Shown one piece after another: positions 36,276 to 55,765 of a DNA stretch of 64,000 nucleotides. A model generated the notes under the pieces. The model worked only from the letters and a program-made list of their open reading frames with translations. It was not told the origin of the DNA and did not search any database. Each line of letters starts with the position of its first letter. Position 1 is the first letter of the stretch. The stretch comes from an uncultured bacterium (GTDB taxonomy: Bacteria; Chloroflexota; UBA5177; JANWHV01), in NCBI GenBank assembly GCA_963729625.1, contig CAVSOU010000008.1, positions 800,001 through 864,000 of the forward strand, written 5' to 3'. A program made the position numbers and the translations under genes.

Positions 36276-37490
36276 ATGTCCGCAACAACATCGTCGCCTA
36301 ACGGATCCGCCGATCGTATTGTGCCTGCTCTGCCCACCGGGCTAGGCAGGTTAGGCCTCGCCATCATCGTGCCCTCGGCCTTGATCGATGTTTCGCTGCT
36401 TCGGGCGTGGAACAACGTCAACAACGGCTTCCACGATTCTGACTGGCTTGTGTACTATCACGCTGCCGAGCGGTCGCTTCACGGCAGCGATCCGTATCGT
36501 GTCGGCAGCGAGTTCTTCAATCCTCCCCCCTTTCTGCTGGCGGCGCGATTCGCGCTTTTGTTCGGCTACATGCCGTCCCGGATTCTCTGGTGCATCGCTT
36601 CGTTGCTCATGCTGCTGGCAGCCGGGCGCCTCATGTGCGGCGCGTTGCAGTTGCGGCTCAACGCTACCATTGTGCTCCAGGGCACGGCGCTCATTGCTCT
36701 GTCGACGCCGACGATCCTGCTCATCCCGACATCAGGTAACTCGACCGCGCCCGTCGTGCTGGGTTACGCACTGGCAATCTGGTGTTTCTGCCGCGGCTTG
36801 GACGCCGCCGGCGGTTGCGCCTTGTGCGTTGCCGTGTTGGTCAAGCCCCAGCTTGCGTTCCTGACCCTGCCCCTGCTCCTGTACAAGCGGCGCTGGAAAG
36901 CTTCGGCGGCCTTTGTCGGTTTGGGCTGCGCCGCAATGCTGGGCTCGGTGATCGTACTGGGCACCGACACCGTGCACGGATTCTTCAGAACTCTAGGCAG
37001 CACCGAAAGTGGCGCCGGCTCGGTGAGTATCTGGGTGCGGGATATCCCGGGTCTCCACGCCATGTTCCTTCAGGCATGGCCCGGAAGCGCCGCCGCGGGA
37101 GGAGTCGCGTATCTTCTGAGCGGCTTGCTGATTGTCGCGCTTGCGCGCTACTGGCAAGGCGACTGGCTGCCGTCGAGTCCCCAATTCGCATGCGGATGGG
37201 CCGCGCTGATCCTGGTCGATCTCCTGGCGGTGCCATACGCGCACACTGACGATCTGGTCCTGCTGCTCGTGCCGATCGCGGTCCTGTGCAGCTTTGTGTC
37301 GCGGCCGACCGGCCGTGATGAGCTGGACCGCTGGGTACTGCCCGCTATTGTGGCGCTCTACGTCGCGCCGACGCTGGTAGTCTACATCCGGCTCCATTTC
37401 CCGGCGATAGCGATGCTGTCTGTGCTCGTGCTGTTGTTGAAGCTGGCTCCTCCTTTCCACGCGACTGGCCAGTCCGGTAACGAGAGATGA
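36276..37490 (+). CDS. GT87 / DUF2029-type polytopic glycosyltransferase
   Basis: SDWLVYYHAA...DPY, FFNPP, VKPQL, PYAHTDDL and many TM helices. Start uncertain (36222 or 36276). Confidence 0.75.
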   Translation: MSATTSSPNGSADRIVPALPTGLGRLGLAIIVPSALIDVSLLRAWNNVNNGFHDSDWLVYYHAAERSLHGSDPYRVGSEFFNPPPFLLAARFALLFGYMPSRILWCIASLLMLLAAGRLMCGALQLRLNATIVLQGTALIALSTPTILLIPTSGNSTAPVVLGYALAIWCFCRGLDAAGGCALCVAVLVKPQLAFLTLPLLLYKRRWKASAAFVGLGCAAMLGSVIVLGTDTVHGFFRTLGSTESGAGSVSIWVRDIPGLHAMFLQAWPGSAAAGGVAYLLSGLLIVALARYWQGDWLPSSPQFACGWAALILVDLLAVPYAHTDDLVLLLVPIAVLCSFVSRPTGRDELDRWVLPAIVALYVAPTLVVYIRLHFPAIAMLSVLVLLLKLAPPFHATGQSGNER

Positions 37491-37629
37491 TCTGCCCACG
37501 CGCGTGCCGGACAGCGACATGGAGGACGACAAACGGACTCGTATACCGGCACGATGCGAACATCGGCTCGATCGGCGGTCGGCAGCGTCATGTCGTCTGG
37601 ATCGCTCGTCAGTATCACGACAGCAGCCG

Positions 37630-39594
37630 TTAGGTGCCAAAGCGCGCGCGGCTGGCAGCCATCCGTTCTTCGAGCGCGTCTAGCCCGCGCTCGATTCCCG
37701 CGAGACGCTCCAGTTCCGGCGCCTGCTCGCCTTCGAGGCGGCGTCTAGCCTCGAGGGCCGCGTCGATGCTATCGCGCACGTTGGCAATCATCACATCGAT
37801 ACCTCGGGCAATCGAGGTTGAGAAGGCATCGAACGACTTGTGCACTTCCTGCAGCATGTTCGGAAGGGCCTTGGCCGGGAGCTTGTGCAACTCGGCCCGA
37901 GCCGTCTCGGCTATCTTCTCCTTCATGTTCCGTTCCATGGTGTTGCGGCGATTGATGATGCCGATGGTCACGGCACTGGCGACAGTTCCCACCACGAAGA
38001 GGGGGCTGGTGGCCCAGCCGATGGCGGCCAGCAGCACGGTTGCCGCAATCTGCAGCGCGATGACGCGAAGCGCGCTCTGCAGCCAACCGCTGCCGCCCTT
38101 CAACACGACGCCGAAGTCGCCCAGCATGCCGCCACCGTAGGCCAGGATGGTCTCCAGCACCCGCTTCGAATCACCTTCGACCTCGTCGATCTCCGGCAGA
38201 ACTCCGCCGGCAACCTGGATGCGAATGCGCTTCAAGGTGGCATCGATGGTCGCGGCGTCTTCGCCGATGTCCTGAGTCAGTTGTGTCAGCCGCTCCTCTA
38301 TGTCCTGGCCGGTCTGATCCGACCAGGTCTGCAGCTCGCGCTCGATGTACTTGTTGATTCCCTCGGCCATCTCTTTGCGGAGGCGCTGGGGATTCCACTG
38401 CGGGGAGACCTTGAGGGCCATTGCCGCTTCCAGCATGCCGTCTTCCATGGTGGCGACGCGCTGGCGGAAGCTCAGCTCGACAGACTTCTGCACGAGCTGC
38501 TCGCCCGACTCGATTGTGCGAAGAATCCGCCTTCGATGCTCCTGCAGCTGGTCGAATTTCGGCTGCACCTCTTTGACGCGATTCTCGAGCGTGGCCAGGT
38601 CGATTTCCATGGTGGAGCGACGGAAGGACAGTGCCTCGCGCGCGTCTCCGACGGCCTGGGAAGCCTGGGCCAGCGGGCGTTCCAGCGCGACTCGACCGCG
38701 TTCGCGAGCGAGGAAGCGCTCGAGCGACCCTTCGAGAGCCGGCAGCCGCGATTGGTCGAGCGCCTGTGTGTCTCCGGCCAGCCGGGCACGGAGCGCTGGC
38801 TTGGCACTCACGAAGTAGATTCGTTCGCGGCCGTAGTCACGACCATTGACGCGAGTGAGAGGGCCGAGGCGCTGCTCGGCCAGCGCGGTCAGATCCCGCG
38901 CCTCGCGGGCCGGGTCGTCCGCGTCGTCGAGCACGCGGTCGTATTGGTTGATCGCGAAGAAGATATGCGTCAGGCCCTTGCCCAGGATATGCGTGTTGAG
39001 GTATTCGAGCTCGGTCAGGCTGGCGAAGTTCGTGGCGGACAGCACGAAGATCGCCGCGTCCGACTGGCGGACGTAGCCGCTGGTGATCTCCGTGCGTATC
39101 GCCGATTCGTTGAGACCGGGTGAGTCGACGATCTCAACGTTGTTCTCGCACAGCGGCGCCGGGTAGTGGACTTCGACCATCTTATACGTCGCCTGCCGCC
39201 GGTGGTTTTCCTCTTCGTCGGTTGAGAGGCTAAGGGTCTGCGCTAGCTGTTCCACGCTTACTTGCTGAGGCTCGCCGCGGAAGGGGATCAACTCGATAGT
39301 GATTTCGGGACCGTACTTGATCAGTGTGAGCAATGCTGTCGTCGGCGTTACGTTGGCCGGAAGGAGGTTCGCACCCAGGAGCGCATTGATCAGGGTAGAC
39401 TTTCCACGCTTGAATTCACCCAGCACCAGCACCCGGAAGACGCCTGCCTGTACGCGGTCGGCGAGTTCCTGCAGCTGGAGGGCGCCGTCCTCCATGCCCA
39501 GACCACGATTGAGCGTGGCCAGTTCTCGCAGCTCCGAGACAACCTCGCTTCTGACTGCCGCAAAGTCCCGGTAGCCTTCAACCTGTCCGGTCAT
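37630..39594 (-). CDS. Bacterial dynamin-like GTPase (DLP-B)
   Basis: G1 GEFKRGKST, G2 PTT, G3 DSPG, G4 NQYD, FVSA; helical trunk with a hydrophobic paddle (IALQIAATVLLAAIGW...). Confidence 0.92.
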   Translation of the reverse strand: MTGQVEGYRDFAAVRSEVVSELRELATLNRGLGMEDGALQLQELADRVQAGVFRVLVLGEFKRGKSTLINALLGANLLPANVTPTTALLTLIKYGPEITIELIPFRGEPQQVSVEQLAQTLSLSTDEEENHRRQATYKMVEVHYPAPLCENNVEIVDSPGLNESAIRTEITSGYVRQSDAAIFVLSATNFASLTELEYLNTHILGKGLTHIFFAINQYDRVLDDADDPAREARDLTALAEQRLGPLTRVNGRDYGRERIYFVSAKPALRARLAGDTQALDQSRLPALEGSLERFLARERGRVALERPLAQASQAVGDAREALSFRRSTMEIDLATLENRVKEVQPKFDQLQEHRRRILRTIESGEQLVQKSVELSFRQRVATMEDGMLEAAMALKVSPQWNPQRLRKEMAEGINKYIERELQTWSDQTGQDIEERLTQLTQDIGEDAATIDATLKRIRIQVAGGVLPEIDEVEGDSKRVLETILAYGGGMLGDFGVVLKGGSGWLQSALRVIALQIAATVLLAAIGWATSPLFVVGTVASAVTIGIINRRNTMERNMKEKIAETARAELHKLPAKALPNMLQEVHKSFDAFSTSIARGIDVMIANVRDSIDAALEARRRLEGEQAPELERLAGIERGLDALEERMAASRARFGT

Positions 39595-39706
39595 TCTCGT
39601 CCTCTCATCGGCGTACGATTCGCCGTTCCTCTGTGTTCGTCATTGATGGAATATTCTGACTGATGCGTACTGCTATTGTTGCACGGGCCTACCACGGCCA
39701 GATGAG

Positions 39707-41350
39707 CTATGGCACACTCCCACCATGCCCGCGCGCAAGATCGGCCAATGCGTTGAGCAACCCCGCGACACGGGCCCGCGATTCCTGGCGCGACGAGTCG
39801 TCCAGCACGATCTCGGTCTGTCGTTTCTGCTCGGGAATGCCGGCGCGGATGCCTTGCGCGAGCTCCGCGCAGGACGCACCGACCTGACCTTCCAGGGCCT
39901 GGCCAGCCTCTATGGTCGCGGCCATGGCGGCCTGCACCAGCGCGGACTTTGTGTTCTGATCATGCATCCCACGAGTGAGCATGCGAAGGATTGGGCCGAT
40001 AGTCATCATGGCGCCTGCAATGACCGGCTTCATGGTCAGCCCGATGACGGTCATGAATGTGGTGAGCAATATGCTGTCTTCGAGGAAGTCGGGCTCGACA
40101 TAGGGATGGAGGCCCGGAGCAGGCGCGCCTGTCGCGAGGCGTTCGGCCTTCCAGTCGGCCACTCCCGCCTCCTGGATGACAGCCTGCATCTTCGCGCGCA
40201 CCTGCACGTCGTGCTCTCGCAGAAACGCGGCGAACTCCTCCTGAATGTAAAACGGAAGGAAGCGGCGGATGTCGCTTATCGCCGCTTCTCCGGTTTCGTC
40301 CTGGAGGCGGTCGCGCAGCGCCAGAGTGAAGGCCTGCAGCTGCAGCTTGAAGTCATTGCATATGGCCTCCACGGCGCGGCACGCGCCTTCCGCCTGCGCG
40401 CGGCGGTCCGTGCCGGCAATGTCCCCGGGCTCGGTCACGGCAGGGATGGGCTCGGAGAGCCTGGCATGGAGCGCGCGCGCGAGGTCCGCTGCCCTCCGCG
40501 CGACAATCGCGCGCAGCACGCCGGCCCTTGTCGCAACGCACTCGCTCAGAAGCGCGCGCAATTCGGGGTAGCCGGACCGGGCCAGCGCACGGTCGTCTCC
40601 GCGCTCTCGAGCGCGCAACGCTCGGCGCGCGGCGTACGGAAGCACATCGGGCGCCTTGCCGAGCGCCGACTCGAACAAGCGCACCACACGATCTCGAACG
40701 TCTGTCCGCTGCTCCTCGTCGTCGAGCGCGTCGTCGCGGTTCAACACAACCACGAGCCGATGCAGGCCCGCCTGCGTTATCCGCCGCTCGAGTAACTGTT
40801 GTTCGCTGGCGCCGAGGGCCTGCGTGCTGTCGAGCACCAGCAGCGCCAGATCGCTCTGCGGCAGGAGCCCGTAGACAGTTTGTGCCAGTCGCGCGGTGTC
40901 CGGATCGTTGAGTCCTGGAGTGTCCACGACGGTGAGCCCGTGGACGTCGTCGCGTGGGATTGCGACGCGCGCGTGACTCACGCTTTCAGCATCGTCGGCA
41001 GTGAGGGCGAGCAGGTCCGATCGCGCGCATTCGATGCTGTTGCCGTCCGCGTATACGAGCTGCACGTGCTCTCTCGCCCCGCTGTACACGTACACGGGGG
41101 GCAACGTCGGCGCGCCCTGGCCCATTGGCAGCCAGGCCTCGCCGATCAGGCTGTTAACCAGCGTTGATTTACCGCGATTGTGTTCACCGATGACTGCGAC
41201 CAGCAGCCGGCGCGAGCGAAGGCGCTCGTCCAGCGCGGCGAGACCGCTGGCAACATCAGTCGCGGAGGCGGCAGTGGCTTCATCGCGCAGCTTGCTCAGG
41301 ATGGCGCGCAGTGCCAGCTCCGAGGTCTGCTGCGAGACTGCGACACTCAC
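39707..41350 (-). CDS. Bacterial dynamin-like GTPase (DLP-A, divergent)
   Basis: GTG start overlaps the upstream TGA. G1 GEHNRGKST, G3 DTPGLND, G4 NRDD; hydrophobic hairpin LLTTFMTVIGL... Confidence 0.88.
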   Translation of the reverse strand: MSVAVSQQTSELALRAILSKLRDEATAASATDVASGLAALDERLRSRRLLVAVIGEHNRGKSTLVNSLIGEAWLPMGQGAPTLPPVYVYSGAREHVQLVYADGNSIECARSDLLALTADDAESVSHARVAIPRDDVHGLTVVDTPGLNDPDTARLAQTVYGLLPQSDLALLVLDSTQALGASEQQLLERRITQAGLHRLVVVLNRDDALDDEEQRTDVRDRVVRLFESALGKAPDVLPYAARRALRARERGDDRALARSGYPELRALLSECVATRAGVLRAIVARRAADLARALHARLSEPIPAVTEPGDIAGTDRRAQAEGACRAVEAICNDFKLQLQAFTLALRDRLQDETGEAAISDIRRFLPFYIQEEFAAFLREHDVQVRAKMQAVIQEAGVADWKAERLATGAPAPGLHPYVEPDFLEDSILLTTFMTVIGLTMKPVIAGAMMTIGPILRMLTRGMHDQNTKSALVQAAMAATIEAGQALEGQVGASCAELAQGIRAGIPEQKRQTEIVLDDSSRQESRARVAGLLNALADLARGHGGSVP

Positions 41351-42273
41351 AGTACTTTCACCAGCTGTTCCGTCTCGCGCTCGAGATCGGTTCGCTGCAG
41401 CAGGTTGAGGTCGTCGGCAGGTCGCGGCAATCCGCTGCAAGCGTAGAACAGGTCCGATCGCGCGAACATTCGCAACAACTTGATGCGCTTTACCACCAGC
41501 GGATGCGAGTAAGTCAGCTCCTGGCCTCGGACGAAGAATCCGGATTTGCGGAGATCGTCTCCCTGGGCAAGGTACGCGTCCACGTCGATGTCCTTGGCCA
41601 GGGAAGCAAAACCGAGACGCAGCTTGATCAGCGCCCGGCAACCGACCTCGGTGTCCTGGGCGCAGATCGCGCCTGCGCGGTCGGCCGTGACCTCCGCCCT
41701 ACGCTGCCAGGTGGCCAGCGGCACTTTCGTGGCAAGCATTGGGAACTTGTACGCATCCGGATTGTGCCAGAACTTGTTGAACAACTGGTAGTGCAGGAGG
41801 TACGCGAGGGTGAGATACGTCACGTGCTGGTTGTGGATGTGCCCGCACTCATGCCCAAGCACAAAGCGCAGCTCTTCGGGCGACAGTTGGAGCGCCAGGA
41901 ACGACGTAACGTGGATGAAGGAGTGCTCATCCGTGCCGAACGTGAAAGCGTTGAGCTCCATGCCGCCGGTGCCTGGGCCGATCAGCAATCTGGGCACGGG
42001 GATGGACAGGCGGTCAGCGCAATCGGTGAGCAGCGAATAGATTTCCGGGAATTGACGCGGCGTAACCTGAACTGAGTCATGCAGGAACGTCCCGAACGCC
42101 ACACGCACGTAGGCGTTGATGATCGCGTCGACGCTACCTTGCAGGCCAGCGCGGCTGAGCAAACGCTGTACGGTGGAGTCAGTGGGATGCGCGTAGAGCA
42201 CGGGCTCTTCCGCATTCTTGCGATTCTCGTGTTCCTTGCGCGACTTGACAAAATCCGCGAAACTCGTAGCCAT
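41347..42273 (-). CDS. M48 family zinc metallopeptidase
   Basis: NAFTFG, EELRFVLGHECGH (HExxH), AEVTADRAG, SHP..VKRI; AGGAGG RBS. Confidence 0.92.
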   Translation of the reverse strand: MATSFADFVKSRKEHENRKNAEEPVLYAHPTDSTVQRLLSRAGLQGSVDAIINAYVRVAFGTFLHDSVQVTPRQFPEIYSLLTDCADRLSIPVPRLLIGPGTGGMELNAFTFGTDEHSFIHVTSFLALQLSPEELRFVLGHECGHIHNQHVTYLTLAYLLHYQLFNKFWHNPDAYKFPMLATKVPLATWQRRAEVTADRAGAICAQDTEVGCRALIKLRLGFASLAKDIDVDAYLAQGDDLRKSGFFVRGQELTYSHPLVVKRIKLLRMFARSDLFYACSGLPRPADDLNLLQRTDLERETEQLVKVL

Positions 42274-42283
42274 GGGCCGCCTC

Positions 42284-42306
42284 CTGGTAGCTGTACCAGA
42301 AGTATA
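42284..42306 (-). promoter_or_regulatory. Putative -10 element and palindromic operator of the M48-dynamin operon
   Basis: TATACT on the minus strand (42301-42306), followed after 1 bp by CTGGTA-N4-TACCAG, which abuts the RBS. Confidence 0.4.
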
Positions 42307-42457
42307 CCCAGGGGCCAAATACGCGCATATTGGCGCAGCGTCGGCGCCGTGCCGGTTCTCGGACGCGCATGATGCGCGCGACCCGCGCAGGATGTCGCGG
42401 CGCGTGTTCGTGACCCGGCTCCGCGATCGTGGTGGATTCATGCAGTAGGGAGAAAGT

Positions 42458-43282
42458 ATGCCTCTCAGCCGGTCCCAGATTCGATGCGTCCTGACAATTG
42501 CCGGATCCGACAGTGGTGGGGGCGCTGGCCTGCAGGCCGATCTGAAGACCCTCCTCAGCCACCGCGTGCATGGAGCCGTGGCCGTGACGTGCATAACGGC
42601 GCAGAACACGATCGGTGTCAGCGCCATCGAACGGCTGTCGTCCGGCATCATTATCGCACAGATACGGGCCGTGCTGGACGATCTGGCTCCCGAGGCCGCC
42701 AAAACCGGCTTTGTGGCCGGTATTGAGGCAATCGGCGCGATCGAGATAGTCGCGGACGCCCTGCCTCCGTTGGTCGTGGATCCGGTGTGCGTCAACAAGC
42801 ATGGCGCCCAGATTCTGGATGACTCGGTCGTGGCTGCGATCAAGCGTGTGCTGCTCCCGCGCGCGATTCTTGTCACGCCGAATGTCGCCGAGGCCAGGGT
42901 GCTTACCGGGCTGGTGGTCAACGATGAGCGCGACATGGAGGCAGCTGCCGACGAATTACTGGCGCAGGGTGCGCACGCCGTACTGATCAAAGGCGGCCGT
43001 ATCGGCAGCGATCGAAGCCCCGATCTGCTCGCCATGGAGACGGGTACTCGCGAATGGCTCGACACGCAGCGTGTGGCCACTACCGCGGTCTTGGGCGCGG
43101 GCGATACACTCGCCGCGGCAATCGCCGCGCGCATCGCCTGGGGCGCTTCGCTGGTTGAAGCAGTTCGCCTGGGCAAGGCATACGTTACCGCGTGCCTGAG
43201 GGTAGCTCTTGAGATCGGCCGCGGGCAGGGACCGGTTGGGCATGTGCCCGCGAACGGCGAGCGCCGCGCGACATATTGCTAA
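42458..43282 (+). CDS. thiD: Hydroxymethylpyrimidine/phosphomethylpyrimidine kinase ThiD
   Basis: LTIAGSDSGGGAGLQADLKT, TAQNT, VVDPV, TPN..EA, IGRGQGPVGH. Confidence 0.92.
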   Translation: MPLSRSQIRCVLTIAGSDSGGGAGLQADLKTLLSHRVHGAVAVTCITAQNTIGVSAIERLSSGIIIAQIRAVLDDLAPEAAKTGFVAGIEAIGAIEIVADALPPLVVDPVCVNKHGAQILDDSVVAAIKRVLLPRAILVTPNVAEARVLTGLVVNDERDMEAAADELLAQGAHAVLIKGGRIGSDRSPDLLAMETGTREWLDTQRVATTAVLGAGDTLAAAIAARIAWGASLVEAVRLGKAYVTACLRVALEIGRGQGPVGHVPANGERRATYC

Positions 43283-48459: not shown

Positions 48460-51400
48460 CTACCCGCCGGTCACGGCCACGCTGTCGTATTCAACGGCGG
48501 TCAACGTGTGGAAGCCGACCATACCGCTTGTCAGACTCACGTCCTTGATGGTCTTGAGCACCGTGCTGTTGATCGATGCCGTGATCGTGGAGCCGCTGAA
48601 GGTAAGCCCGAGCGTATACCAGGCGCCGGTCACCGGGGTGAACGAGCCGGAGCCAATCTGTGAAAACGCGCCGGCCACCCGCTTTGCCAGCTGCCACTTC
48701 GTGCCGTCCCGGAGCAGCAACATGTACGTGTCATTGAAGTCGTGCCAGCGACCAAGAATGCCGAACGCAGCGGTGCCGCCGGGCGCTTTGACGGCGATGG
48801 ACACCATGTAGTTCGTCCATGCGGGACTTCCGGCCGTAAGTTCTGCCGCGGGAGACACGGTGCGCGTCTCCGCCGCCACATGTGATTGATCCTGCGTGAC
48901 GGTCCATGTGCCGCCGGTGGCGGCCCAGTTGGCCGGTGCGGCGCCGAGTTGATCGGCTTCAAAGTCGTCCGAGAACAAGGTGCCGCCGGTTATTGGGGTA
49001 TAGGTCGCGGTCGGCGTGGCAGGCGCGACCGTCGGAGTAGGTGTGCCGGTACGCTCGGGAGACGCCGACAGCGTCGGCGAGTTGGTGGCGCTCGGCACTG
49101 CCGTGAACGTCGCGGAAGCGGTCGCGGTGCTCGTAGTGCTCGGCGCAGCCGTGAGTGTGGCAGAAGTGGTCGCAGTGCTTGTGGCGCTTGACACTGCCGT
49201 GAAAGTGGCGGAAACCGTGGCGGTAGCGGCAGGCGTCCCGGTGGGGGAAGCTGTCGTCGTGCTCGTAGCGGTCGAGGTCATAGTCGCCGTTGGCGTCGTG
49301 CTAGCGGTGCCCGTCGCCGAAGCGCTGGGCGTCGCCGTCACCGTGCCGGTATTTGGCAGCACGCTCACCGCAGTGAAATTGACGGTGCTCGATCCGATCA
49401 AGTTATGGGCCGTTACCGCGAGGCCCGCGAGCACGGGGCCGGCAAGACCGGTCAGGGGCACGGTCGAGCCTGGAACAAGGGTCCAGGCGACTCCGTCCTG
49501 CGACGTGAAGGCGCTGAAGGTCGTGCCCGAGCGGCTGACCTGCAAATACGCCGGTGCGCTGCCGGAAACGGTCGCCAGCGCGAGCGCCTTCACGCCCTGA
49601 GGCGAGCGGTATTGGACGTTAATGCCATTGCTGGGAGTGACCAGCAGGTCATAGAATGCGGCGCCCGGTCCAGTCCCTCCTCGCAGCATCACACCAGCCT
49701 TGGCCCACGGATCGCTGTTCGTCTGGCTCACCACCTGAGCCTGGACATTGCCGTCCGCGCTCAGGCTCTGATAGTCGAAGCGTAGCTGGTCGCCGGTTCC
49801 CCAGATATCGCCGCCCCCGCCCGTCACCGTCCAGTTGCCATTCGCGACGGCGTCGCTGCCCGGCACGGTCGGATTGCCGATGTCGGCGCAAGCCCAGCCG
49901 GCCGGGCAGCCTCCCGGCGCAGTCCCCGTCGGCGTCACGGTAGACGTCTGCGTGGGAGTCGGCGTTGCAGTCGTGACCGTGGTGCTGGTCGACACGCTCA
50001 CTGCATGGAACACGACAGTGCTTGAGCTGCTCGTATTGTGCCCCGTCACTGCGAGACCGGCCAGCAGGGTGCCGGACATGTCCGGCAGGCTAAGCGCAGA
50101 GCCCGCGACTGCCGTCCACGTTGCACCGTCGGCCGACGTGTAGGCATTGAAGGTCGTGCCCGTGCGGGCGATCATCAGGCAGGTAGGCGCCACTCCGCTG
50201 ATCAGGGACTGCTGGACGGCGCTTCCGCTGGTGAAGCCTCGGTACTGCACGGTGATGCCGTTGCCGGGCGTGACGACTGCATCGTAGTACGCCGCGAAGG
50301 CTTGCGGGCCACTTCGCAGCATCAGTCCGGCCTTCGCCCACGGGCTACTGTTCGACTGCGAGGTGACGCAAGCGCTGATGCCGCCGTCGCCGCCGAGCGA
50401 CTGCCAATCGAAGTGGAACTGGTCTCCAGTGCCCCAGATGTCGCCCCCGCCTCCCTGAACCGTCCAGGATCCCGTGGCCTGAGCGTCACTGCCTTGCACC
50501 GTCGGCCCGCCAATGTCGGCGCAGGACCAGCCCGAGGGGCAGAGTAGCGGCGCGGTGGCATTGATCGATACGGTGTCGAATTGGGCGCTGCCGACAACAC
50601 CGGCGTTGTGCGACGAGACCGCAAGGCCGACCAACAGCGTGCCGAGAAGGTTAGTCATGACCTCGCTCGTGCCGAGAGACGTCCAGGTGATACCGTCTGA
50701 TGATGTGTAGGACGTGAAGGCCGAGCCAATACGCGAGACTTTCAGATACACCGGCGCCGCGCCGGCTACCCTGGCAAGGCCCAGGGTATTGAAGGACGCT
50801 GCCGCACGGTACTCCGTGGTGATACCGTTAGCGGGCGTGGCGAGAAGAGCGTAGGACGGGGCATTCGCCGCGGTGTTCTGCCGGAACATGATGCCGGCCT
50901 CGGCGTTACCGTTGGTCTTTGTCTGATTACTGACGCGCGCGGTAATCGTGCCGTCGCCCGTCAAGCTCTGCCAGACGTAATGGAATTGGTCGGACTGGTT
51001 CGCGATGAGGTTGCCAGCGCCTTGAACCGTCCAGGTTCCGCCACTGAGCGACTGTCCACCGGTAAGTGAAGGATTCCCGACATCGCCGCAGGACCAGCCG
51101 CTCGGGCACGAACCCGTGGGAGCTGCCACGGGTGCCATGGCCGGGGTGCCTACTGTGACCTGGCTGAGTTGCGCCGTGCCGGCGGTGCCGTTGGCACCCG
51201 AGGCGGCAGCCAAACCGGCGAGAATAGAGGCCGGCATGGCGATGGCCACGGTGGTGCCGGGAATCAGCGTATACGTGATACCGTCTGTCGAGGCGGACGC
51301 CTGGAATTGGTCGCCGACCCGCTGCACGGCTATGTACGAGGGAATCGACACCGTGACCGAGCGCACAACCGCTACTACCGCGGGTGTAACGCGGTAGGCA

Positions 51401-53118
51401 ACCGCCAACGACCCCGAACCGGTCAAGTACGCGGCGTAGAACGGCGAAACGGGATCGCCGGTTTGCCGGATGATCAATCCCTCCTGTGCGTGAGTCGAGC
51501 CGGAAGGTAGGGTGCCGGCGAGGGCGGTCAGCTGCACGTCACCGCCCATCGGTTGAGTCAACAGACGGAGCGAATCTCCGGCTCCGCCGAGCCCGGCACC
51601 GCCGGAGCTGATGGTCCAGGAGCCCGACGAAACCACCTCCGATCCGGCTGGAGATGGCGTGCCGACGTCCTGGCATGTCCATCCACTGGGGCACGAAGGA
51701 TCGGGGGGCGGTCCGGAGGCGCTCGAGGTAGGGAGGCCGAATGCATAAACATTTCCGTCCGTGCCGCCGAAAATGATCTGCCCGTTCGCTACAGCAGGCG
51801 CGCCGTACAGTGGCGCGGCCGTGGTGTAGCTGAACAGCCTTGTGCCGCTTGAGGCATCGAGGACTTCCAGCGTCGATCCCTCCCCGTCGACGATGAAACC
51901 GTTAGCGTAGGCGATGGCAGGAATAACAGGAGAAGCATTTGGATGCTGCCATTCAACTGCACCGTTTCGCGGGTTGATAGCGCTCACAGACCCGCCAAAA
52001 CCCTGGCCCCCGATCACTGCGTTGCCCGTGGCCTGGTAGATGGCGCCATTGGCGAAAGCCGCATTAGAGACTGTCCCGTCGCCGGCAGCCGGGTTTGCTC
52101 CGCCCGGATCGAGCCGCACCTGCCAGGCGGGTCCGGCCGCCAGGTTGATGGCGGTCGTCGAGCTTGCAGGCTCGCCGAAGGCGTAGAGTACGCCGTTCTT
52201 GTTCATGGCAATAACGAGCCGGTTTCCCGCACCGTCGGTGACAATCGTGGGCCCCGTGCCGAAATCGGCGTCGCTCAGCGACTGATTCTCAGGAATCTGC
52301 CAGTACGACTCTATGGAAAGATCGGACGCGGAGAGCGCAACCACGGCCTGCGACATAGTCTGATCCGCGGAAGCCTTTGTGCCAGTTGAGACGTAGACTG
52401 TACCGGTCGCGGCGTCGTATGCAGGGGAGGTCCAGACGCCTCCACCGACTTCGCCGCTGGGAACGAAGGTGGCTGTCGCCACGATGGCGTGCTGGGTGAG
52501 GTCGACCTTCAGGAGCTGCCCCTGGACGAGCGGGCAATCACCGAAGCTCGCAGTGCCCACGTACGCGAAGTTGCCCACGATCAAAGGGCTCGCCCAGTTG
52601 TAGTGGCCACCTGTCGCGCTCCCATCGCCGGTGTTGACCGTCCAGAGAATGGCGCCCGTGCCGGCGTCGAGAGCGTAGAAATAGGTGTTGGTTCCGTGCT
52701 GATAGTCCCCGCCTCCGACGTACGCTACGCCGTTCACGACTGCGGCTCCGGAACTGACGCCGGCGGAAGGCGGATTGCAGGCATACGGGCCCGTGATTCC
52801 CAGAAACGTCTTCCACTTCAGGGCGCCGGTAGCGGCGTCCAGCGCGTATTCGTAGCCGTCCCAGGACCCGATATACACTGTGCCGGCCACGACGGCCGGT
52901 TCGGCGGCAATAATGCCGCCCGTCTTGAATGTCCAGCTCTTGACCAACGTGTCAGCGTTGTTCGTCGACAACGTGCTCTCGTCTACGCTGGCGGCGCTTC
53001 GACCGGCGTCGTGAAGGTACGTTGGCCAGTCGCCGGCGGTGGTTAGGAGAGACACAACCAGGAGCACCACCACTGCGCGGGCACGCGCCAACGAGACAGC
53101 AACACCTGGACGCCTCAT
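48460..53118 (-). CDS. Secreted modular protein: PQQ-type beta-propeller, four ConA/DUF1349-like modules, Thr/Ala linker, C-terminal ConA-like domain
   Basis: Signal peptide, DWPTY, GSWDG..YALDAATGALKW propeller repeats, four CPxGWxCxDxG-initiated repeats; GGAGG before ATG at 53118. Confidence 0.85.
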   Translation of the reverse strand: MRRPGVAVSLARARAVVVLLVVSLLTTAGDWPTYLHDAGRSAASVDESTLSTNNADTLVKSWTFKTGGIIAAEPAVVAGTVYIGSWDGYEYALDAATGALKWKTFLGITGPYACNPPSAGVSSGAAVVNGVAYVGGGDYQHGTNTYFYALDAGTGAILWTVNTGDGSATGGHYNWASPLIVGNFAYVGTASFGDCPLVQGQLLKVDLTQHAIVATATFVPSGEVGGGVWTSPAYDAATGTVYVSTGTKASADQTMSQAVVALSASDLSIESYWQIPENQSLSDADFGTGPTIVTDGAGNRLVIAMNKNGVLYAFGEPASSTTAINLAAGPAWQVRLDPGGANPAAGDGTVSNAAFANGAIYQATGNAVIGGQGFGGSVSAINPRNGAVEWQHPNASPVIPAIAYANGFIVDGEGSTLEVLDASSGTRLFSYTTAAPLYGAPAVANGQIIFGGTDGNVYAFGLPTSSASGPPPDPSCPSGWTCQDVGTPSPAGSEVVSSGSWTISSGGAGLGGAGDSLRLLTQPMGGDVQLTALAGTLPSGSTHAQEGLIIRQTGDPVSPFYAAYLTGSGSLAVAYRVTPAVVAVVRSVTVSIPSYIAVQRVGDQFQASASTDGITYTLIPGTTVAIAMPASILAGLAAASGANGTAGTAQLSQVTVGTPAMAPVAAPTGSCPSGWSCGDVGNPSLTGGQSLSGGTWTVQGAGNLIANQSDQFHYVWQSLTGDGTITARVSNQTKTNGNAEAGIMFRQNTAANAPSYALLATPANGITTEYRAAASFNTLGLARVAGAAPVYLKVSRIGSAFTSYTSSDGITWTSLGTSEVMTNLLGTLLVGLAVSSHNAGVVGSAQFDTVSINATAPLLCPSGWSCADIGGPTVQGSDAQATGSWTVQGGGGDIWGTGDQFHFDWQSLGGDGGISACVTSQSNSSPWAKAGLMLRSGPQAFAAYYDAVVTPGNGITVQYRGFTSGSAVQQSLISGVAPTCLMIARTGTTFNAYTSADGATWTAVAGSALSLPDMSGTLLAGLAVTGHNTSSSSTVVFHAVSVSTSTTVTTATPTPTQTSTVTPTGTAPGGCPAGWACADIGNPTVPGSDAVANGNWTVTGGGGDIWGTGDQLRFDYQSLSADGNVQAQVVSQTNSDPWAKAGVMLRGGTGPGAAFYDLLVTPSNGINVQYRSPQGVKALALATVSGSAPAYLQVSRSGTTFSAFTSQDGVAWTLVPGSTVPLTGLAGPVLAGLAVTAHNLIGSSTVNFTAVSVLPNTGTVTATPSASATGTASTTPTATMTSTATSTTTASPTGTPAATATVSATFTAVSSATSTATTSATLTAAPSTTSTATASATFTAVPSATNSPTLSASPERTGTPTPTVAPATPTATYTPITGGTLFSDDFEADQLGAAPANWAATGGTWTVTQDQSHVAAETRTVSPAAELTAGSPAWTNYMVSIAVKAPGGTAAFGILGRWHDFNDTYMLLLRDGTKWQLAKRVAGAFSQIGSGSFTPVTGAWYTLGLTFSGSTITASINSTVLKTIKDVSLTSGMVGFHTLTAVEYDSVAVTGG
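49360..51694 (-). repeat. Four tandem ~190-aa intragenic domain repeats
   Basis: Units start CPSGWTC, CPSGWSC, CPSGWSC and CPAGWAC, and share WT(V/I)xxxG, (F/S)xAxxSxDG and V/LLAGLA-type motifs. Boundaries approximate. Confidence 0.85.
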
Positions 53119-53599
53119 ACTGAACCTCCGAATTGTGGTGCAGCGGGAACCACCGCGAAGAATGCGACGAGCGCGGTAGTTCGGCTCATGCACAGCAGGA
53201 AAACATAATGGGAGAACGAAAAAGGACCAGGAAAGCACACTGAAGCAGTTCGCCGTTCTGATGCACTGCGACGGCAAACCTCCTAAGATCGTACGTTTAC
53301 ACACGGCCGAAAGGAATACCTGCCTGGCACACAGTGCGCGGCCAGTCGGATACTGAATCGCACTCAGCAGGATTGTGCCCGTACACGTGGATTGCGATTG
53401 GCGCCATCGGGCCGGCAGATAGAGGCATTCAGGCCCAGACATTTGGGTCATTGATGAGCGGGCTTCGCGCCACTACTATGGCATCGTCGCAGGGACCTGG
53501 ATGTCGTCAGTGCGATGACTGTCAGCCGAGTTGTCGGACATGAAACAAGGCGGTAGCTGAGCGCGCCGCGGCATAACCGCTCACTCTATTTGAAGTCGG

Positions 53600-53675
53600 A
53601 TCGGCAAAGGCAAACCTGCCGTGAGGCAGGGGAGCAAAGTCGTGGGGCTCGGCAAGCCAGTCAGGCTGCACAGAG
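53600..53675 (+). ncRNA. Cyclic di-GMP-I (GEMM-I) riboswitch-like element
   Basis: AAAGGCAAACC-TGCC-GTGA-GGCA-GGGGA-GCAAAGTC...GGCTGC: the conserved GGCAAACC and GCAAAG motifs, a GNRA tetraloop stem and a second stem, about 50 nt upstream of the next start codon. Confidence 0.7.
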
Positions 53676-53725
53676 GGACATTCTCTCGGTCAGGCTCTTG
53701 CCCCGTGGCAGAAAGGGTAGGGGTC

Positions 53726-55765
53726 TTGCTAAAACGAATTGCACCCTGTCTACTGGTGGCAGCAATCGTGGGCCTTCCTCGCGCCGCAGCTCTGCCAACC
53801 ACACTATCTCGTCTGTCGAGCGCGCATGCAGCGTCCAGCAGCGTATGGTACGTACGCGACATGGGCATGACGCCGGTGACGCACGACACCGTCTGCAACC
53901 AGATGAGCCAGACCAATATGACCCGCATGGTCGGCTACGTGGCGCAATTCCATGCCAACTATGCCTCCGACGATGTCCCCCTGGGCGATGCTTCGAACTT
54001 CAACTGCAAGTTCGGCTCCGGCAACTCCCTGCTCCAGCCGTACGACTACATGAAGAAGTGGGCGGCGACCATGCGCGCTGCTGGGCTGCACGTGATGTTC
54101 CGGGGCAACTGGAATACCTGGAAGGTCTCGAACGGCACCGGCAACTACGGGCAGCCGTCGCTAACCTATCTCACTTCGCCAGCCATTCCCTACGAGGGGC
54201 CGGGTGGACTGGCGGCGGTGCTACGCGGCGCCGACACCACTTCGTACATCGGCAAAACCTACCAGTGGATCCTGCACCACCCCGATGTGTACCAGGATGG
54301 CGACATCTTCGAGCCCTTTGGCGAGGCACAGAACAACGGCATTCTCAATGGCCCCCGCGGTTCGACCCTGTGCAGTGCTCCGTACTGCCAGTTCCCCACC
54401 ACGGCCGCCTTCAACCAGTGGCTCAGCGATTTCAGCCAGGCAGACCAGGCCGCGTTCACTGCCATTGGCAAGAAGGTGACCTCAGGCTGGTTTGGCCTTT
54501 CAGGCGACTCGTACAATTATCTGACCGCGGCGGCGATGTCGCACAGCAGCGCCTACAACCTGGACCACTTCAATCCACAGTGCAGTTTTTCGCATTGGCA
54601 GGCGGGGGTGACCGGCAGCCATGCTGCGATGCCCAACATGACGATAGCGCTGGAGTTTGGCGACAACTGCGACACCGACGCCACGGTGCAGCAGGTGGCC
54701 GCCACTACCGACCAGTACTTGGGCTGGCTGGTGCAGCAGCCGTACGTCAGCGGCGTTGAATGGTGGGACGAGTCGGGCCAGGGTCCCGGCGCCCAATCCG
54801 CGGCGGTCGACTACGGCACGGGCCAGATGACGCCGGCCGGTCAGGTGGTGGCGAAGTATTTTGCGCTGATGGATGGTGGGGCCGCGCCAACAGCCACGTC
54901 CACGAGCACGCCAGTACCGCCGGCCCCGACGAAGACGCCCGTTCCGCCGACTGCCACGAACACTGTGGCGCCGCCGACCGTGACGAAGACGCCCATCGCG
55001 CCGATCGCTACGTCGACACGCACGCCGGTATCGCCGACCGCGACGAAGACGCACATTCCGCCGACTGCCACGAATACCGCGGCGCCGGCGACCGCGACGA
55101 ACACGCCCATTCCACCAACGGCCACGAACACTGCGGTGCCGACGACACCGCCTGCACCAGGGCGAATCGCGTTCGTGCAGAGCACTGCCCAGCTGGGCCA
55201 GGGTTCCAGCCTGACGTCAAGTTACGCTAGTATCGTGGGAGCGGGCGATTTGCTGGTCGGCACCTTCCGAAGCCAGGGCTCGACATCGGTGAGTGACAAG
55301 CTCAACGGTGCATGGACCCAGGCAGCAAAATGTGGCGTGGTAACTATCTGGTACGCGGCCAACGCCAAAGCTGGCGCGACCACGGTCACGCTCACCAGCG
55401 GCAGCGTAGGGCAGATGCGGATCAGCCTATCCGAGTACTCTGGCGCCGCTAGGGCGAGTCCCCTGGATGCAACCGCGTGCAGCGCCGGCTCGACCACCGG
55501 GGTAACCGCTACTTCCGGCGCGGCAATACCGGCGGGAGAGCTCGCGTACGCCGGCCTGGGCAGCGGTAGCAACCCCGCTACAGTAACGGCGGGAACCATT
55601 GGCAGTCGACCGGCTACGCTCCGCGCCCAGATGACCGGAAACGCCGGCACAATCGCCGTAGAGGATGTGACGGCCACCGCGGCAGGCCAGCAGAATGCAA
55701 GCATGACCTTGAGCGCCTCCAGCGGCGGCTGGAACGTGGGCCTGGTCACGTTCAAGCATCAGTAG
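53726..55765 (+). CDS. Secreted putative clan GH-A-like glycoside hydrolase with Pro/Thr linker and C-terminal beta-sandwich
   Basis: Signal peptide, AAGLHVMFRGNW, DIFEPFGE (candidate acid/base), IALEFG (candidate nucleophile), PTATNT repeats, IAFVQS domain. TTG start inferred downstream of the riboswitch. Confidence 0.7.
   Translation: MLKRIAPCLLVAAIVGLPRAAALPTTLSRLSSAHAASSSVWYVRDMGMTPVTHDTVCNQMSQTNMTRMVGYVAQFHANYASDDVPLGDASNFNCKFGSGNSLLQPYDYMKKWAATMRAAGLHVMFRGNWNTWKVSNGTGNYGQPSLTYLTSPAIPYEGPGGLAAVLRGADTTSYIGKTYQWILHHPDVYQDGDIFEPFGEAQNNGILNGPRGSTLCSAPYCQFPTTAAFNQWLSDFSQADQAAFTAIGKKVTSGWFGLSGDSYNYLTAAAMSHSSAYNLDHFNPQCSFSHWQAGVTGSHAAMPNMTIALEFGDNCDTDATVQQVAATTDQYLGWLVQQPYVSGVEWWDESGQGPGAQSAAVDYGTGQMTPAGQVVAKYFALMDGGAAPTATSTSTPVPPAPTKTPVPPTATNTVAPPTVTKTPIAPIATSTRTPVSPTATKTHIPPTATNTAAPATATNTPIPPTATNTAVPTTPPAPGRIAFVQSTAQLGQGSSLTSSYASIVGAGDLLVGTFRSQGSTSVSDKLNGAWTQAAKCGVVTIWYAANAKAGATTVTLTSGSVGQMRISLSEYSGAARASPLDATACSAGSTTGVTATSGAAIPAGELAYAGLGSGSNPATVTAGTIGSRPATLRAQMTGNAGTIAVEDVTATAAGQQNASMTLSASSGGWNVGLVTFKHQ
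54885..55160 (+). repeat. Pro/Thr linker repeats (PPTATNT / PTKTP)
   Basis: Imperfect repeats of roughly 10 aa within the CDS. Confidence 0.8.

Follow-up and report, generated by a model that had tools for sequence, protein, structure and literature searches.

Most of what is known of bacterial dynamins comes from structures; what they do in the cell, and with which partners, is ill defined. In mitochondria, the M48 protease OMA1 cleaves the dynamin OPA1 under stress. We analyzed a stretch of 64,000 nucleotides (the window; positions 800,001 to 864,000 of contig CAVSOU010000008.1, assembly GCA_963729625.1) from an uncultured soil bacterium of the Chloroflexota, in which three genes follow one another on the minus strand: a gene for an M48 zinc metallopeptidase (called M48 below) and genes for two dynamin-like proteins (DLPs), DLP-A and DLP-B. 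We regard this locus as a putative bacterial dynamin operon with a dedicated M48 protease subunit; the more specific OMA1-like and defence mechanisms that might be attached to it would rest on analogy.

OMA1 and OPA1 resemble the window in that a zinc protease of the M48 family is tied to a remodeller of the dynamin superfamily, a comparison drawn at the family level. OMA1 is an integral membrane protein and OPA1 has an N-terminal anchor, whereas the window M48 is devoid of transmembrane segments and its DLPs carry internal paddles. HtpX and Ste24/ZMPSTE24, M48 proteases that serve the quality control of membrane proteins, match the window M48 in fold and active site, but their transmembrane helices are absent from it.

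Among the bacterial dynamins, Nostoc punctiforme's bacterial dynamin-like protein (BDLP; 2J68/2J69/2W6D; 'Tandem B') aligns with DLP-B over its full length and is also the best structural match of the DLP-A model. As in the window, two different DLPs stand in tandem in Nostoc, with 'Tandem A' as the upstream partner (PMC5827413). Unlike the window, Nostoc BDLP is given no protease partner in the accessible text of that paper or of a 2025 bioRxiv paper on BDLP. The gene-context survey of cyanobacterial DLPs in PMC5827413 names KGK, tandem, HSR1 and DnaK partners, and neither 'protease' nor 'peptidase' occurs in its main text. The genes for DLP1 and DLP2 of Campylobacter jejuni (5OWV/5OXF) are adjacent in one operon, as in the window, but the third gene there encodes an HcpA-like beta-lactamase where the window has a protease. 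The accessible part of the same paper (PMC6104087) names a DnaJ-like domain beside the HcpA-like beta-lactamase as a DLP companion and presents heterotypic DLP pairing as probably general in bacteria. Similarity between the sequences of DLP-A and Cj-DLP2 is confined to the G domain.

Three further systems can be set beside the locus. The DLP-A model matches mycobacterial IniA, which belongs with IniC to the iniBAC operon, whose partner gene is iniB and not an M48 gene; a passage of the 2025 bioRxiv paper on BDLP describes iniBAC as a stress-induced DLP pair. DynA of Bacillus subtilis holds two DLP units in one chain, whereas the window DLPs are separate genes. Eleos (LeoA + LeoBC) and LeoABC of enterotoxigenic Escherichia coli (ETEC) resemble the window in having several DLP genes per operon; Eleos is without a protease component, whereas the window operon has M48 and lies outside a defence context. 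A full-text literature search, with subscription-only papers outside its scope, found no description of M48-dynamin pairing in bacteria, in agreement with an initial annotation of this DNA, which knew of no characterized M48-DLP-DLP operon; among the papers it turned up, one has HtpX merely as a candidate protease for DgcE, and others deal with Proteus outer-membrane proteins, a mitochondrial proteome or bacterial membrane vesicles. The module would give bacterial dynamins a conserved and dedicated enzymatic partner, in at least four phyla and sometimes in a single chain, and a bacterial parallel to the mitochondrial protease control of dynamins becomes a testable question.

Layout of the operon

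The three genes and their junctions are as follows.

41347..42273, minus strand: M48 zinc metallopeptidase, 308 amino acids (aa), from the translation and Pfam PF01435; member of a DLP-associated M48 subfamily.
39707..41350, minus strand: DLP-A, 547 aa, a BDLP/IniA-like dynamin, from Dynamin_N, Foldseek and intact G motifs.
37630..39594, minus strand: DLP-B, 654 aa, related over its full length to Nostoc punctiforme BDLP, from Pfam and phmmer.
41347..41350, minus strand: GTGA overlap of the DLP-A GTG start with the M48 TGA stop, read from the sequence.
39595..39706, minus strand: spacer of 112 nt that separates DLP-A from DLP-B; a GAGAGGA Shine-Dalgarno-like element stands ahead of the DLP-B ATG, read from the sequence.

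The co-orientation of the three genes, the GTGA overlap and the distance of 112 bp to DLP-B had all been put forward in the initial annotation, and each is present as described. The overlap of stop and start implies a translational coupling of M48 and DLP-A. An AGGAGG Shine-Dalgarno sequence precedes the M48 ATG at 8 nt. Longer mechanical open reading frames (ORFs) in the frames of M48 (609 aa) and DLP-A (644 aa) were rejected as upstream run-ons, because the DLP-A start overlaps the M48 stop by 4 nt in 10/10 relatives. A scan of positions 37200-42700 found 2 promoter-like sites, where 1.0 would be expected, and 6 terminator-like sites against an expected 2.7 +/- 2.0; the 112-nt spacer contains neither kind. 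An Rfam scan of the window found no RNA element in or beside the operon. No public RNA run containing the operon is listed, and the best DNA run shares 0.22 of its words.

Linkage of the M48 subfamily to dynamins

We searched 41 related genomes with M48 as the query, fetched the flanks of the matches and aligned the three proteins on them. Full-length M48 orthologues (E values from 8e-55 to 3e-197) are present in 4/4 genomes of the same genus and in 8 genomes from two other families of the same class, while the remaining matches (E 5e-12 or weaker) span the HExxH region only and are paralogues. The order M48, DLP-A, DLP-B is kept in all four genus relatives and in five relatives from the other families (G007, G009, G010, G011 and G012); in G006, M48 and DLP-A run up to the contig end, and the contigs of G014 and G020 stop too early. 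The 4-nt overlap between M48 and DLP-A recurs in every one of the ten relatives of the genus and class. The spacer between DLP-A and DLP-B measures 109, 65 and 49 nt in three genus relatives and is replaced by a 4-nt overlap in the five relatives from other families; therefore all three genes appear to be translationally coupled there. As the genus relatives also keep the flanking thiD, lexA, response-regulator and GT87 genes, the operon is vertically inherited in a housekeeping setting.

A wide survey with the alignment of orthologues covered one genome per species (185,579 species), and the best 80 of at least 570 confirmed stretches were inspected, of which 77 have at least 800 nt after M48 and are usable, the other three being shorter. 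In 77/77 usable loci the next gene on the same strand after M48 belongs to the dynamin family, so that the linkage, whose recurrence the initial annotation had proposed to check, is not unique to this genome. An ORF that matches the local dynamin profile at E<1e-8 starts on the same strand at most 405 nt away in 75 of the 77. In the other two (L079 and L082), ORFs of 567 and 556 aa directly follow M48 and a clear DLP comes next; these ORFs are homologues, at blastp E 1e-24 and 2e-13, of degenerate DLP-A-like proteins from other Firmicutes. The M48 stop and the DLP start overlap by 4 or 1 nt in 38 of the usable loci and are separated by a gap of up to 100 nt in 30 and of 101-500 nt in 7, L079 and L082 making up the rest. 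The flanks of nine diverse loci, which hold kinases, regulators and metabolic genes, share nothing else.

By group, with labels that are approximate, the best 80 loci comprise 54 from Myxococcota and relatives, 17 from Chloroflexota (including Ktedonobacterales and metagenome-assembled genomes, MAGs, of Chloroflexia), eight from Firmicutes, among them Murimonas intestini DSM 26524 (L084), and one from a cyanobacterial MAG. Where at least 6 kb is available downstream, the number of DLP genes after M48 differs between the groups as follows.

Myxococcota: one DLP in 29 loci, two in 7, three in 0.
Chloroflexota: one DLP in 0 loci, two in 6, three in 4.
Firmicutes: one DLP in 2 loci, two in 1, three in 4.

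The window module has the two-DLP form, with the GTPase motifs intact in both. The taxon labels of some MAGs are unreliable. Two MAGs deposited as 'Proteobacteria bacterium' or 'uncultured proteobacterium' (L030, which is G011:C52, and L051, which is G010:C5) are placed in the window's Chloroflexota class, and between the DLPs of an 'Amaricoccus sp.' MAG (L093) and of a deltaproteobacterial MAG (L100) the tree distance is zero.

Cyanobacteria served as a specificity control. The M48 profile is matched at E<=1e-25 by 114 of 251 sampled cyanobacterial genomes, four of them in a top tier (1e-92 to 1e-107). Where flanks are usable, the top-tier loci (2/2) have two downstream DLP genes, whereas 0/10 paralogue loci have a DLP within the 12 kb fetched. 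Therefore the linkage is specific to one M48 subfamily and does not extend to M48 proteases at large. The paralogue family comprises proteins of about 290-320 aa in 1-3 copies per genome, in about 110 of the 251 genomes at E values of 1e-45 to 1e-55; the loci checked are L126-L135 (G103, G130, G142, G200, G212, G224, G250 and G286). At one top-tier cyanobacterial locus, about 2.3 kb separates M48 from the two DLP genes (L124:4274-6574).

Judged from this distribution, the module is old and widespread but patchy. The subfamily is found at E<=1e-70 in 14 of 301 genomes sampled across the phylum, 13 of them in the window's class, where the genus has it in 5/5 genomes (window counted) and two other families in 2/4 and 6/12. 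Among 1.84 billion representative proteins, the M48 profile matches 1,307 at E<=1e-30, paralogues included.

Natural fusions of M48 and DLP

M48 and DLP also occur as one polypeptide. While a query with the single M48 sequence gave no fused form at E<=1e-10, an alignment query then found fusions. P0004 (901 aa) and P0005 (888 aa) came from an alignment search for longer relatives, and P0037 (906 aa) stands at rank 3 among the 150 matches listed in an exhaustive search of representatives. Each carries PF01435 at the N-terminus and then PF00350 (Dynamin_N). The three are mutually 53-67% identical over their full length including the junction, and because the fusion has been kept through this divergence, it is not an assembly error. 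Their nearest unfused relatives belong to myxobacterial loci (about 50-54% identity), and P0037 has its HExxH, P-loop and DTPG intact. At the junction the C-terminal helix of M48 leads almost directly onto the N-terminal helix of the DLP, a position that would place the protease beside the neck/G-domain end of the dynamin. These fusions argue for a direct functional link, and probably a physical one, between M48 and DLP. Another candidate, P0006 (878 aa, both domains listed), was rejected as a fusion since it is a frame-shifted, Arg-rich read-through.

Further long relatives of M48 carry DnaJ, zinc-ribbon, SHOCT, TerB-like or Ser/Thr kinase domains. P0111 (559 aa) is a fusion of a Ser/Thr protein kinase with an M48 of the subfamily, and two unrelated loci (L028:5327-6796 and L066:1910-5290) have Ser/Thr kinase genes immediately upstream of M48, a hint that the module may be controlled by phosphorylation in some lineages.

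An M48 peptidase without a membrane anchor

Pfam assigns residues 73-268 to Peptidase_M48 (PF01435) at 83.8 bits against a cut-off of 20.3. The active-site codons lie at the following positions.

41839..41853, minus strand: HECGH zinc-binding/catalytic motif, residues 141-145; H141, E142 and H145 invariant in 81/81.
41677..41694, minus strand: E194-V-T-A-D198-R199; E194, D198 and R199 invariant in 81/81.

Across the 81 aligned M48s of the subfamily, H257, P258 and R263 are likewise invariant, in addition to the six residues listed. In the M48 ExxxD motif, E194 supplies the third zinc ligand, and we take the His-x5-Arg pair to be the equivalent of the transition-state residues of ZMPSTE24. The set of HExxH, Glu and His/Arg known from HtpX and ZMPSTE24 is thus complete, and the intact HExxH...E site without a clear signal peptide reported in the initial annotation holds, with no anchor found either. 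The N-terminus is charged and shows no signal peptide, and hydropathy analysis finds no segment of transmembrane grade, the maximum 19-residue Kyte-Doolittle mean being 1.12; over the 81 members the median of these maxima is 1.35.

An AlphaFold2 (AF2) model built from the alignment of 81 sequences has a mean pLDDT of 89.5 and a pTM of 0.89. Its best Foldseek matches are ZMPSTE24 (4aw6, E 2.8e-4), Ste24p and the HtpX domain 3cqb, with probability 1.00. The TM-score on the query is only 0.44 because the transmembrane barrel of the targets is missing in M48, and it is 0.69 on the target for the HtpX domain. The subfamily profile likewise finds the HtpX domain 3cqb in the PDB (E 1.1e-11), and also Ste24p. 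The nearest named relatives in NCBIfam are the HtpX models, whose equivalogs score 23-43 bits against cut-offs of 245-422 (best 42.9 against 355). Since these scores are far under the cut-offs and a transmembrane segment is absent, the protein is an M48 family member but not HtpX.

Two parts are specific to the subfamily, a conserved C-terminal helix and an N-terminal stretch of some 70 residues, which contains a near-invariant YA(HP)xD motif. The motif occupies M48 residues 27-32 (window 42178-42195, minus strand), in a coil outside the Pfam M48 domain, and it could be an active-site latch or a dynamin contact.

The two dynamin-like proteins

Both DLPs are dynamins of the BDLP type, with a G domain, a helical neck/trunk and a hydrophobic paddle. 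Dynamin_N is matched at 61.5 bits in DLP-A and at 90.4 bits in DLP-B (Pfam cut-off 27), and DLP-B also matches the bacterial dynamin-like helical domain PF21808 at 96.5 bits. The functional elements are the following.

41162..41188, minus strand: DLP-A P-loop GEHNRGKST, residues 55-63, motif intact.
39394..39420, minus strand: DLP-B P-loop GEFKRGKST, residues 59-67, from the translation.
39986..40120, minus strand: DLP-A paddle region, residues 411-455, in which a hydrophobic helix comes after a loop of low confidence.
37954..38073, minus strand: DLP-B hydrophobic hairpin (paddle), residues 508-547, hydropathy 2.04 and 1.81.

DLP-A has the further G motifs DTPG and NRDD (G4), and the G3 and G4 equivalents of DLP-B were read by eye from the translation. 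The hydrophobic paddles noted earlier in both GTPases are borne out. That of DLP-A is single (residues 427-445, hydropathy 1.74; pLDDT <50 at 411-434) and that of DLP-B is the hairpin listed above. The AF2 model of DLP-A (pLDDT 83.4) has Nostoc BDLP (2j69, E 3.3e-19) and IniA (6j72, E 7.1e-19) as its best Foldseek matches, and by sequence it is more distant (Cj-DLP2, E 1.6e-8; IniA, E 1.1e-7). DLP-B aligns by phmmer with PDB 2j68 at E 1.3e-58, residues 41-646 against 58-682. The NCBIfam model DynmDynABac gives 42.8 and 18.9 bits on the DLPs against a cut-off of 1600. A predicted complex of DLP-A with M48, run without controls, reached a median score of 0.29 against a mark of 0.32, which speaks neither for binding nor against it.

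Five Dynamin_N genes are spread over three loci of the source genome, of which the window operon alone has an M48. The others are a single gene (G000:C7:582843-583328) and a tandem pair (G000:C11:488575-491629), with no subfamily M48 beside them.

A motif census of 68 aligned DLPs adjoining M48 shows that the GTPase is not always kept. GxxxxGK[ST] and DTPG are retained in 53/68, namely in the window's genus, in two Chloroflexia MAGs and in all myxobacterial proteins. Eleven have GSGR or GNGR and no DTPG, ten of them from other Chloroflexota and one from a Firmicute (L028, L030, L033, L034, L035, L040, L041, L042, L051, L071 and L080), and four Firmicute proteins (L044, L070, L076 and L084) are without any G motif and have no Pfam match at 1e-6. 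The P-loop Lys and the DTPG are hence lost in 15 of the 68, while the gene is retained in the same position, which suggests that the retained pseudo-GTPase may act as a structural adaptor. As the adjacent DLP is often a pseudo-GTPase, the protease would be the constant catalytic part of the module. Its site never decays, and this contrast suggests that the protease may be the functional core, which would change the reading of 'paired DLP operons'.

In a FastTree phylogeny of 108 DLPs, whose deep order is unsure because of long branches, the window DLP-A falls into a clade with the degenerate proteins (21 rows, support 99) and DLP-B into one with second-position DLPs (22 rows, support 97), and the myxobacterial first-position DLPs form a clade of their own (50 rows, support 99). 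The M48 tree also splits the Myxococcota from the rest (54 rows, SH-aLRT 99). Since the two trees share this split, protease and dynamin have travelled together. At the level of gene order and phylogeny, the pairing is shown to be ancient, specific to one M48 subfamily and inherited as a unit.

Proposed mechanism

Comparative genomics gives strong support to a functional link between protease and dynamins, and joint action of M48 and DLP as a dedicated unit is likely. As to how they do so, we favor, at a probability of roughly 0.4, a membrane module of fixed ratio in which a heterotypic DLP pair is joined by an anchor-less cytoplasmic M48 that cuts substrates other than the dynamins. Expression from one operon would yield a stoichiometric complex of protease and dynamins at the cytoplasmic face of the membrane, with the protease presumably riding on DLP-A, a gene that can persist even where its GTPase has been lost. 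The DLP pair might bind the membrane through its paddles and undergo GTP-driven assembly at sites of membrane stress or damage, and this assembly would bring the protease to the cytoplasmic membrane surface. There it may cut substrates close to the membrane, most probably membrane proteins that are damaged or misfolded, as do its closest relatives by sequence, HtpX and Ste24. The dynamins would be the targeting and remodelling part and the protease the constant catalytic output. Substrates other than the dynamins are favored because permanent fusions, 1:1 coupling and the missing anchor fit a pair of targeting and catalytic subunits.

Several points weigh against this proposal. A protease that processes its partner could likewise be made in a fixed 1:1 ratio with it. 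The fusions have the single-DLP, Myxococcota-type form and not the two-DLP form of the window. An occurrence as patchy as this (14/301 in the phylum, 4/251 in cyanobacteria) would sooner be expected of an accessory function in stress or defence than of core quality control. Moreover, the source genome has three other Dynamin_N genes without M48; therefore DLPs appear to need no such protease in general.

While the proposed module leaves the dynamins uncut, M48 might instead cleave DLP-A and/or DLP-B under membrane stress, as the M48 protease OMA1 does with the dynamin OPA1 in mitochondria, and so activate, release or clear their lattice, a reading put forward in the initial annotation. The DLPs are the sole constant companions of M48 and hence the only conserved candidate substrates, and a fused M48-DLP could process itself in cis. 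Yet no conserved cleavage site or processed form is known, and the cut in OPA1 removes an N-terminal anchor, whereas the DLP paddle is internal and offers no equally simple release. OMA1 is also embedded in the membrane, unlike the window M48, and fusions that persist through so much divergence fit a permanent complex more easily than a consumable substrate. We therefore hold cleavage of the DLPs to be doubtful, if still the best of the alternatives. By analogy, it would be similarly tentative to call the operon a bacterial OMA1-OPA1 counterpart in the broader sense, that is, a dedicated M48 on a dynamin pair which either controls the pair proteolytically or is switched on by dynamin assembly. 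If this were true, the module would be a membrane-damage sensor with a proteolytic output, and a pseudo-GTPase DLP that serves as protease adaptor would be a new use of the dynamin scaffold.

Genomic setting and the question of defence

The neighbours of the operon in the window are purE/K, an FAD oxidoreductase, YitT, two oligopeptide ABC ATPases, GT87, thiD, lexA, a GGDEF response regulator and gyrA, a housekeeping context and not a defence island. The initial annotation had offered a defence system as one reading of the locus, and this part of it is not upheld. In PADLOC, M48 has no match, the DLPs have partial matches to LeoA/LeoBC (E 1e-11 to 6e-25) that amount to generic similarity, and 0/19 scanned neighbours have a defence-specific match, the two ABC ATPases matching generic ATPase models. 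The NCBIfam model LeoA/HP0731 (DLP_LeoA_gen) reaches 31.7 bits against a cut-off of 325, which does not place the DLPs in Eleos/LeoABC.

An anti-phage role would have Eleos-like dynamins and a protease effector act late in infection, delaying lysis or killing the cell. DynA of B. subtilis and the two-dynamin Eleos are reported, in the accessible parts of the sources, to protect against phage (PMC8844932; 10.1101/2022.05.11.491447), and the partial LeoA/LeoBC matches, the patchy occurrence across phyla, an integrase near one Firmicute locus and a Fic protein near another would be in keeping with such a role. The PADLOC and NCBIfam results, however, speak against it, as do neighbours such as thiD, lexA, gyrA, purE/K and the ABC-transporter genes, whose synteny is kept in the genus, and the flanks of the nine diverse loci, which have no defence genes in common. 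We consider a defence function improbable.

In other bacteria, envelope stress induces HtpX-type proteases as well as DLPs such as IniA and DynA, but co-regulation only, with independent membrane-stress proteins under a common promoter neither binding nor acting on each other, is the least probable of the readings, given natural in-frame fusions, 4-nt stop/start overlaps kept across phyla, linkage in 77/77 of the usable loci while flanks vary and paralogous M48s are unlinked, and an adjacent DLP that decays to a pseudo-GTPase and is yet retained, suggesting a structural adaptor. The probability that is left falls to something else.

A few observations concern genes other than the operon. The thiD orthologue that adjoins the operon in one relative of the genus (L013:2281-3085, G001) aligns as two overlapping pieces, which suggests a frameshift or an assembly error. 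On the minus strand at 48460-53451, the window encodes a 1,663-aa protein with beta-propeller (PQQ-like) and DUF1349 segments, adjoining the gene of a DUF2089 regulator. At 53599-53673 on the plus strand lies a riboswitch of the c-di-GMP-I class (Rfam RF01051, 47.3 bits, gathering score 35), at the start of a 714-aa ORF without a Pfam match (53621-55765), and the true start of this ORF is therefore probably downstream of the aptamer.

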